From a phage, in sequence record PZ534514.1: DNA of 51,676 bases; one strand, written 5' to 3'. Position numbers and translations under genes: made by a program. Below, piece after piece: positions 6,230 through 6,440 of this stretch. The first letter of the stretch is position 1; every line of letters begins with the position of its first letter. Under the pieces are notes generated by a model. It did not search any database and was not told where the DNA came from. It saw only the letters and a list, made by a program, of their open reading frames with translations.

Positions 6230-6440
6230 TTTTTGTTCTCTTGTTCCTCAATTTGCGCCGGATATAGATATATAGACACACATAACCACTGACACATGCA
6301 TAATCACAGAAAAATCACCAGGCACACAAAATCACACAAAACATAGATAACAATAAAGAACAAACATGAATATATATACTACTAACTTATTGATTTATAT
6401 GTGTGTATATATTTACCTGTATATATTGCGCTCTATTGTT
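6230..6440. promoter_or_regulatory. AT-rich divergent control region with ATCAC(A/C) repeats and IHF-consensus site; homologous to 35830-36040
   Basis: Repeats at about 6302-6338; taacttattgatt at 6383-6395 matches WATCAANNNNTTR on the minus strand. Confidence 0.5.

Follow-up and report, generated by a model that had tools for sequence, protein, structure and literature searches.

Our analysis of the phage sequence record PZ534514.1 (51.7 kb; 'the window' below means this whole stretch) revealed a pair of homologous, AT-rich intergenic elements, A (approximately 6184–6507) and B (approximately 35737–36125), which may be two replication origins of the type that the pathogenicity islands of Staphylococcus aureus (SaPIs) carry, or one origin and a cooperating copy, for a phage-encoded MCM-like helicase. 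Judged from sequence comparison and a structural model, this reading has, in our view, an even chance of being correct. The window is a complete or nearly complete genome of a T1-like phage (Drexlerviridae, Tempevirinae, Hanrivervirus), with 93–97 % identity to the Escherichia phages Fulano1, grams, damhaus and Henu8 of the same genus. Element A lies between recE (5020–6081, minus strand) and the small lipoprotein gene cor (6582–6809, plus strand). Element B lies in the large gap (35656–36392) that separates two divergent early operons, the first gene to the left being 35185–35655 on the minus strand. An initial annotation had described both elements with smaller extents than those found here, and every string that it named was present where it had been placed. 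It had also set both between divergently transcribed operons. For A this holds loosely, as the right-hand neighbour is the single gene cor followed by a bidirectional terminator, and the A gaps of phages TLS and Punny have co-directional genes on both sides, so divergent transcription is not essential to A.

Two paralogous elements and a candidate initiator-helicase

The homology that had been claimed for the two elements was borne out far above the AT-rich background, both by blastn and by shuffle-tested alignment. By blastn against the whole window, A and B shared 70 % identity over 162 nt (E ~1e-17), and each was the sole match of the other. Their local alignment, which spans 6282–6505 (224 nt) and 35901–36125 (225 nt), scored 53, compared to 12.1±1.8 for mononucleotide shuffles and 17.7±3.3 for shuffles of 10-nt blocks that keep local composition (z = 10.6); any other window of the genome scored 15 or less. 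The string ACTAACTTATTGATTT occurs exactly twice in the genome, at 6381–6396 and 36000–36015. A scan of viral contigs for this shared 16-mer returned 113 loci, nearly all of them chance matches to an AT-rich word, and was set aside; the true relatives among them were a handful, which were then recovered by BLAST.

The AT-rich cores of A and B are the two least stable windows of the genome, whether windows of 60, 100 or 150 bp are used. At 100 bp, duplex stability was lowest for B (−105.7 kcal/mol) and second lowest for A (−106.2 kcal/mol), whereas the next-lowest window had −116.2 kcal/mol and the genome averaged −136.1±6.4. Orthologous gaps were taken from eight Drexlerviridae genomes of five lineages, namely the window (Hanrivervirus), SECphi27 (Warwickvirus), W011D (Changchunvirus), TLS (Tlsvirus), T1 (Tunavirinae), Rtp (Braunvirinae), Rogue1 (Rogunavirinae) and KP36 (Webervirus). 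In all eight, the A and B cores were the two least stable 100-bp windows genome-wide. Alignments of the gaps from four Tempevirinae genera (14 gap-A and 11 gap-B sequences) showed that the core sequence diverges between genera and that its AT-richness stays. Because the sequence drifts and the instability persists, the conserved trait is a physical property, as expected of a DNA unwinding element.

Each of the eight genomes had the paired element, and in every case A was upstream of the recE operon and B occupied the large gap in which the records of T1 and TLS start. In KP36 (L133, 33467–35008) the recE-erf-ssb operon is inverted and relocated beside the primase gene, compared to T1, TLS and the window, and element A has moved along with it. 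Within single genomes, A and B were 85 % identical over 130 nt in KP36, 78 % over 95 nt in W011D and 75 % over 91 nt in T1, where the margin over cross-genus matches is small. In Rtp the identity was 76 % over 161 nt (121 bits), clearly above the roughly 40–50 bits obtained to the orthologous gaps of other subfamilies. This likeness within genomes suggests, from the sequences compared, that the two copies co-evolve, a pattern expected from co-evolution with a phage-specific binding protein. Identities differ between A and B in phage BEK7, and the flanking genes are mosaic in some relatives. The block-wise conservation of the elements is comparable to that of invariant promoter hexamers.

Short boxes of two opposed polarities, AACA-type and TTGTT-type, surround each core. 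Together, the two elements of the window hold 22 boxes compared to 4.7 expected, in the same order of clusters in A and B, the boxes being degenerate and defined from the very sequences tested. Across the 25 aligned elements, the 90 nt to the left of the core contain 68 occurrences of AACA[AG] and none of [CT]TGTT, and TTGTT-type boxes stand only to the right of the core, counts that measure conservation among kin sequences. Lineage-specific words are likewise concentrated in the two gaps: TGTTACA in T1 (6/6 genomic copies), TGTTCAC in TLS (4/8), AGAACAA in the window (5/10) and the palindrome TCCGCGGA in Rtp (3/3 sites).

The rightward operon that starts at gap B encodes a DUF3987 protein (40744–42327, plus strand), which carries a helicase annotation and is the candidate cognate initiator-helicase. 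An AlphaFold2 model of this protein, based upon 25 aligned homologues (predicted local distance difference test score 86.9), displayed an MCM-like AAA+ core and, at the C-terminus (residues ~451–521), the topology of a winged helix. A Foldseek search with the model returned MCM subunits and Orc1/Cdc6 (E = 1e-4 to 1e-2), and the helicase resembles Cch of the staphylococcal cassette chromosome mec (SCCmec) and PriRep of SaPI5. The winged helix varies more than any other part of the protein (49 % mean identity, compared to 65 % for the AAA+ core). A sequence search of the PDB with the helicase for the P4 α protein or other initiators gave chance matches only, with no match to a P4 α chain at E ≤10, and it was the fold comparison that proved informative instead. 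An alternative candidate for binding the boxes is a Cro-type helix-turn-helix (HTH) protein (49365–49838, plus strand), which matched PDB 5w8y (E = 2e-5) and the Cro structure 3bd1 (E = 3e-4), and more weakly the Pfam families P22_Cro and YdaS. A Zn-ribbon primase (49832–50827) is encoded just downstream of it.

The same arrangement was seen in a distant set of three metagenomic phage contigs (L129, L130 and L131), whose DUF3987 helicases are 36–41 % identical to that of the window. In L131, all 11 copies of ACCCCA/TGGGGT in the locus fall in a 565-nt gap (68–632) just upstream of the helicase operon (P = 1.5e-13), with TGGGGT mostly to the left and ACCCCA mostly to the right of the least stable AT-rich tract of the locus. 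In L129, CTTACA/TGTAAG was the most enriched hexamer of a gap (9203–9759) upstream of a helicase-primase-helicase-recE operon, with 10 of its 21 copies there (P = 4e-11); an (AAC)13 run and the least stable window are in this gap too. In L130, an ACCCCA/TGGGGT array and the least stable window share a 534-nt gap (11076–11609) directly downstream of a Cro-like-primase-helicase operon, just 3' of the helicase gene, which is the position of the SaPI origin. By their sequence, these arrays are textbook-like candidates for iteron-type origins. The architecture thus follows the helicase family while the box sequence changes, as expected for an origin and its initiator. Ahead of the helicases, both L129 and the window have small open reading frames (ORFs), which matched no Pfam family and showed no similarity to each other.

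Anatomy and neighbourhood of the elements

Both gaps share one layout. From left to right it comprises a leftward σ70 promoter, near consensus and with invariant hexamers, one or two GATAACA boxes and an IHF-like (integration host factor) site (TAAGTnATTGAT, 6202–6214); a left outer arm with two or three boxes of the TTGTT type and then a GC box; a CA-rich spacer; two or three phased AACA-type boxes; the AT core; TTGTT-type boxes; a second GC box; and a right outer arm of AACA-type boxes. With '<' for an AACA-type and '>' for a TTGTT-type box, element A reads <6184; >6223 >6234 >6242; <6346 <6356; core; >6437 >6440; <6479 <6489 <6498, and element B reads <35737 <35769; >35805 >35820; <35956 <35975; core; >36042 >36051 >36070; <36109 <36118.

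Element A opens with the AACA-type box GATAACA (6184–6190, minus strand), whose A.AACA.A block is invariant in the gap-A alignment. It is followed by an IHF-consensus match on the minus strand (TATCAATCACTTA, 6202–6214), which lies between the recE promoter and the left arm and in which TAAGT and TGAT are invariant. The left outer arm (6222–6263, plus strand) carries TGTTGTC (6223), TGTTCTC (6234), TGTTCCT (6242) and the conserved GC box TTTGCGCCGGAT (6252–6263); it is a conserved block of the 14-sequence alignment and forms an inverted repeat with 6485–6508. The CA-rich spacer (6280–6338, plus strand) contains ATCACM repeats at 6303, 6314 and 6331, and solely AATCAC at 6313 is kept across genera. 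The left inner boxes (6339–6366, minus strand), GATAACA at 6346 and AAGAACA at 6356, are phased; they form the most conserved block of the gap and an inverted repeat with 6426–6452. The AT-rich core, a candidate DNA unwinding element, occupies 6366–6425 and includes an IHF-consensus match (6383–6395, minus strand). To its right are the TTGTT-type boxes TTGTTGTTCACTTTTTG (6436–6452, plus strand), which align with 36040–36057 of B, and then a GC box and the right outer arm (6458–6507, minus strand) with AATTTAAGACTCCGCAGATTT, GAGAACA (6479), GATAACA (6489) and AAGAACA (6498). This arm is strongly conserved. The inverted repeat flanking A that had been described initially was recovered, 6228–6244 pairing with 6485–6501 (17 nt, 88 % complementary), together with a second pairing of 6230–6242 with 6496–6508.

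In element B, the left outermost boxes are two copies of GATAACA, at 35737 and 35769 (35737–35775, minus strand). The left outer arm (35805–35848, plus strand) contains TGTTAAA, CTTGTTGAC and TTGGTTGAC and the GC box GGAGGATTGC, with a CTGTT.A...GTT.AC block conserved in the gap-B alignment, and an outer inverted repeat pairs 35796–35808 with 36112–36124. A TATATA stretch and CA-rich spacer (35855–35950, plus strand) follow, with ATCACM repeats at 35873, 35883, 35908 and 35921. The left inner boxes (35956–35983, minus strand) are the phased AACA-type words TAGAACA, TCAACAG and AATAACA, with a period of ~10–12 nt; they are a conserved block, form an inverted repeat with 36024–36049, and are accompanied by a period of 12 reported by Tandem Repeats Finder at 35973–36005. 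The core of B, likewise a candidate unwinding element, spans 35982–36041 and includes an IHF-consensus match at 36002–36014 (minus strand). The right inner boxes (36040–36076, plus strand) comprise TTTGTTCTTTTTGTTGAT and, at 36069, CTGTTATC, and the string TTTGTTCTTTTTGT within them is strongly conserved, Tlsvirus included. The right GC box and outer arm (36082–36125, minus strand), with GTGCGGAGGCT, GATAACG, GGGAACA (36109) and AATAACA (36118), align with the right arm of A and are conserved in SECphi27 and TLS.

The IHF sites and ATCAC repeats initially described in the elements are real but largely genus-specific, and do not serve as their defining marks. The string AATCAATAAGTTA is present on the minus strand of both cores and is an exact match to the consensus WATCAANNNNTTR, which has 10 matches genome-wide compared to 4.1±2.0 expected. 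Among the orthologous elements compared, the core site is exact only in A and B of Hanrivervirus, A of SECphi27, B of UTK0006 and A of Rtp; it is lost in BEBK14, Changchunvirus, Tlsvirus (TLS, Stevie and Punny) and T1, and its position is thus not conserved across the family. The match at 6202–6214 is kept more widely, being exact in gap A of Hanrivervirus and Changchunvirus and in gap B of SECphi27. The three ATCAC(C/A) repeats of A and four of B, all on the plus strand, were confirmed, and such clusters are essentially specific to Hanrivervirus. IHF may well assist in this genus, perhaps by bending the DNA. DnaA boxes (TTWTNCACA) numbered four in the genome compared to 7.2 expected, with none in A or B. 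Two further likenesses were rejected. LexA-box-like strings (CTGTATATAT) look like by-products of TATA-rich composition. The stretch 35921–35937 (TATCACCGCAAACAATA) shares its first 11 bases with the λ operator OR3 (TATCACCGCAAGGGATA); this was put down to coincidence, as the ATCACC repeats are genus-specific and the HTH protein of the phage is of the P22-Cro type.

Near-consensus σ70 promoter sites stand outside both elements. The recE-erf-ssb operon has a TTGACT-16-TACAAT site (6138 to 6111, minus strand; 10/12 matches) whose −35 AGTCAA is invariant in 14 sequences of four genera, and the leftward early operon has a TTGACA-17-AATAAT site (35720 to 35692, minus strand; 11/12 matches) whose GTCAA is invariant in the gap-B alignment. 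To the right of A and outside the shared module, a likely promoter cassette for cor (6507–6550, plus strand) consists of a repeat of a 21-nt family (AATAGCACTTTTTGCTAAAC) and TATAGT at 6545–6550. A 21-nt intergenic repeat of T1-like phages (aaATAGCACnnnTTGnTAAAA) has been reported for TLS, with its function unknown (PMC11447400). In the window the repeat takes the form AAATAGCACTTTTTGTTAAAAC, roughly 22 nt, and occurs in ~16 or more copies that are always oriented with the downstream genes: at 6507, 17328, 21088, 36309, 37447, 37944, 39994 and 40670 on the plus strand and near 29602, 30950, 33468, 34447, 34909, 45788, 46808 and 49330 on the minus strand. Many copies are followed by a short GC-rich hairpin and then by a TATAAT-like hexamer ~22 nt after TTGTTA, which is too far for a standard σ70 spacer. 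These repeats resemble A and B in being conserved and non-coding, and one copy adjoins A (6507–6529) and another ends gap B (36309–36330). They differ in being another sequence family, with their ~16 or more copies upstream of genes, and stand outside the A–B paralogy.

The packaging site (pac) has been placed in gap B across the T1 family (PMC7718038). A block at 36187–36260 can be aligned to the beginning of the TLS record, whose base 1, assigned as the pac cut, corresponds to 36231/36232. By this alignment the block is likely the pac region of the phage; it is rich in AATCA/GATCA words. The HindIII 5876 and EcoRV 2733 sites of TLS match the published pac fragments (PMC11447400), a mapping of limited resolution, and this gap also contains the start of the T1 record, which has a terminal repeat of 2800 bp. 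Measured from element B, the TLS position is ~100 bp past the right arm and about 200–220 bp from the core, a proximity that the initial annotation had omitted. As the block is separate, and as A has no counterpart of it (the A–B alignment stops at 6505/36125), pac adjoins B yet is distinct from the shared module, and neither A nor B coincides with the mapped first packaging cut. Inverted TATTCC...GGAATA pairs (TATTCCTGTTATTCCTGATTAATGGAATAGATGGAATAAT) occur at 36258–36297, just upstream of the first rightward 21-nt repeat, and the equivalent place in T1 has TATTCCA/TGGAATA, with four copies in gap B. Overlapping both the pac-like block and the right arm of B is an ORF of 83 aa (36092–36343) that starts with TTG and lacks a usable ribosome-binding-site spacing. 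It stays intact in close relatives alone, shows four to eight stops or frameshifts in SECphi27, TLS, Stevie and UTK0006, where the DNA still aligns, and is left unannotated in some relatives; from this broken reading frame and patchy annotation, it is probably not a gene.

Other observations concern the neighbourhood of cor and the ends of the window. A bidirectional intrinsic terminator at 6818–6837 (AAAGGGGCGCAAGCCCCTTT, with T runs on both strands) separates cor from the convergent tail genes, and because it follows cor, this gene forms a moron-like transcription unit of its own. The signal-peptide and lipobox stretch of cor (6591–6637) is 77 % complementary over 47 nt to 35127–35173, which is part of a small minus-strand ORF near element B (34925–35185, 86 aa); the match suggests that the phage has a second gene for a Cor-like lipoprotein. 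At 51445–51676, a perfect tandem repeat of 105 nt (2.2 copies) reaches the end of the window, and nucleotides 1–223 are 84 % identical to it. The window seems to have been opened within a repeat-containing, tail-fibre-like gene, and the perfect copies at its end could alternatively be an assembly overlap. Scans of the whole window against Rfam at gathering thresholds and for tRNAs returned no match and gave no support for an RNA gene.

Proposed origin function and alternative explanations

In the mechanism that we propose, each module would combine an AT-rich unwinding element of ~60–100 bp, phased boxes of opposite polarity and outer inverted arms with GC boxes, with AACA-type boxes on the recE or early-left side of the core and TTGTT-type boxes on the other. 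The DUF3987 helicase would read the boxes via its C-terminal winged helix, assemble on both sides of the AT core and melt it; the Zn-ribbon primase would start synthesis, which a host polymerase would extend, and IHF would possibly help bending in Hanrivervirus. We infer that this helicase would be the protein binding the boxes, that replication would start at A and B and that one or both copies would fire.

Several points weigh against origin function. Unlike the SaPI origin, neither element is next to the helicase gene: the distance is 4.6 kb for B, which lies upstream of the gene, and ~34 kb for A. Element A always accompanies recE, even after the inversion in KP36, which fits a cis-regulatory link equally well. 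Some boxes in gap B of T1 and in L129 overlap promoter elements, as operators do. Two origins in a 50-kb genome are unusual, though precedented. The polarity counts, drawn from related phages, are not independent observations, and the Tempevirinae boxes (TTGTTnn) are degenerate, A/T-rich and less crisp than the distant ACCCCA and CTTACA arrays, with moderate enrichment. GC skew was tried as a sign of an origin and rejected: its cumulative minimum lies at ~36000, in element B, and every turning point is a change of gene orientation, so skew follows gene orientation and is uninformative here.

The strongest alternative, which we consider rather unlikely, assigns A and B to two early operons, recE-erf-ssb and the leftward operon at gap B, as their upstream regulatory or architectural regions. 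On this view a phage protein, for instance the Cro-type HTH protein, would use the boxes as operators or enhancer sites, bending of the IHF type would carry these to the near-consensus σ70 promoters, and the AT core would be curved or UP-like DNA. Such a role would be compatible with origin function, as in iteron plasmids with an autorepressing initiator. Both elements are indeed oriented alike with respect to a strong leftward promoter, a conserved IHF-consensus site (6202–6214) stands between the recE promoter and the left arm, A moved with recE in KP36, and the replication module includes a gene for a genuine Cro-type HTH protein. Boxes also occur in or near promoter elements: in gap B of T1 an inverted pair, GTGTAACAC...GTGTTACAC, sits in the ST77 promoter/5'-leader between the TTGACA hexamer and the start codon, and the L129 sequence, read directly, shows boxes within the spacer of σ70-like promoters and shortly downstream of their −10. 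However, the likeness of A and B is centred on the AT core and right arm, 150–370 bp upstream of the promoters, and their promoter-proximal 200 bp are unlike in the window. A promoter scan found no σ70-like sites within 6184–6507 or 35737–36125, and neither element has the internal promoters and overlapping operators of a divergent promoter/operator region. TLS and Punny keep the right arm of A even though they have no rightward promoter there and the arm abuts only a terminator. Regulation would also leave unexplained the least-stable cores of 8/8 genomes amid sequence drift and the same architecture downstream of the L130 helicase operon. The same evidence bears on the initial proposal of a replication origin or a master early-promoter switch. 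The origin half is favoured by the comparative and structural findings, while unproven, and the switch half is weakly supported, as the shared module includes neither the σ70 promoters that serve the leftward operons nor those of the 21-nt repeats on the right.

An improbable variant of origin function is that A and B act as a coupled pair, with helicase–box complexes pairing both sites by handcuffing or in the manner of P4 ori and crr, so that the conserved two-site layout would itself be the functional unit. Pairing would time the switch from origin-dependent replication to recombination-dependent concatemers and pac-initiated packaging, a role proposed because B is ~100 bp from pac and A heads the recombination operon. 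The two elements are roughly opposite on the circular map, 29.6 and 22 kb apart.

Packaging by itself appears a very unlikely role for the shared module; in this role B, beside pac, would be where the small terminase recognizes the DNA or assembles, and A would be a second or vestigial site. Repeat-plus-IHF packaging sites are known in other phages. Gap B is the pac location of the T1 family, the TLS and T1 records both begin there, the B core is only ~200 bp from the equivalent of TLS base 1, and GTGATT/AATCAC-type repeats occur at the ends of both records. Against this, the pac-aligned block is separate from the module and missing at A, which is what makes the role unlikely; A is ~29.6 kb from pac, and the L130 and L131 architecture stands beside helicase, not terminase, genes. 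The TLS literature reports a single submolar pac fragment and describes no second packaging start.

That the modules are functionless, either relics of a palindromic selfish element (akin to a miniature inverted-repeat transposable element, with terminal inverted repeats) or recombination-prone AT-rich spacers, is the least probable explanation of all, as the inverted terminal arms around an AT-rich centre, the two copies per genome and the mosaic flanking genes of some relatives (A and B identities differing in BEK7) are outweighed by positions and orientation fixed in eight genomes of five lineages and by block-wise conservation near that of invariant promoter hexamers, with no extra copies or presence/absence polymorphism in those genomes, near-equal alignment spans and conserved box polarity.

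Comparison with known origins

The seven classical T phages include T1, and Drexlerviridae rank among the coliphages most often isolated; still, no origin has been mapped in the family. No origin is known for T1-like phages (PMC11447400, PMC7718038), and the SU57 paper found none. The 2024 re-annotation of TLS sought origin-like repeats and reported none, and no λ-like iterons (PMC11447400). We found no description of elements A and B in the accessible literature. Our study provides two precise candidate origin loci, present in all lineages examined, together with a candidate initiator. It also points to a general rule for phages with DUF3987 helicases, namely phage-specific short boxes of opposite polarity around the least stable DNA, and this gives annotators a simple way to flag such elements and would help in T1-like phage engineering and replicon building. 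If the origin reading is true, the self-loading helicase paradigm of SaPI and SCCmec would extend to virulent enterobacterial phages.

The nearest known system is the SaPI origin. The Rep proteins of SaPIs are initiators and helicases that load themselves, recognizing iterons of five or six nucleotides through a C-terminal winged helix, and the origin has a central AT-rich region with at least two iterons on each side in opposite directions (PMC9371898). Elements A and B likewise have an easily melted AT-rich centre and at least two opposed boxes on each side of it, the boxes being degenerate and defined from the same sequences, and the phage encodes a comparable gene set, with a primase and an AAA+ initiator-helicase predicted by its model to have a C-terminal winged helix. 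The SaPI origin lies directly downstream of rep, whereas A and B do not; only the distant L130 has its array there, and those of L129 and L131 are directly upstream of the helicase operon. The T1-like genome further differs from SaPIs in having two paralogous copies, in boxes that are 5–7 nt, degenerate and A/T-rich, and in added outer inverted arms and GC boxes, which give five clusters of alternating polarity over ~320–390 bp. The carrier, compared to those of SaPI Reps and SCCmec Cch, is a virulent 50-kb enterobacterial siphovirus and not a satellite.

Satellite phage P4 has two separated cis regions, ori and crr, ~4.5 kb apart, which share the same short repeats; these are recognized by the α primase-helicase through its C-terminal origin-binding domain. 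A and B are similarly two cis regions sharing boxes, and the primase of the window has a P4-α-like Zn ribbon (Pfam PF08273). In the window, however, primase and helicase are separate genes, whereas they are fused in P4 α, and A and B are 22 and 30 kb apart on the circular map. The TLS box TGTTCAC resembles the type I iteron of P4 (presumably TGTTCACC).

The plasmid origins of pSC101 and R6K γ place an AT-rich region with an IHF site beside short initiator-binding repeats. A and B share with them an AT core with an IHF consensus beside arrays of short boxes, and the boxes by promoter elements in gap B of T1 and in L129 are reminiscent of initiator autorepression. Unlike these plasmids, the window encodes no Rep-type (winged-helix dimer) initiator, A and B have no DnaA boxes, and the core IHF site is not conserved across genera. 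Neither an oriC-type arrangement of DnaA boxes nor λ-type iterons of 18–19 bp inside a replication gene describes the elements. In summary, an iteron-flanked unwinding element read by a self-loading helicase is a known kind of origin, the conserved pair in the T1 family is new, and its two-copy layout is a noteworthy variation on that type.

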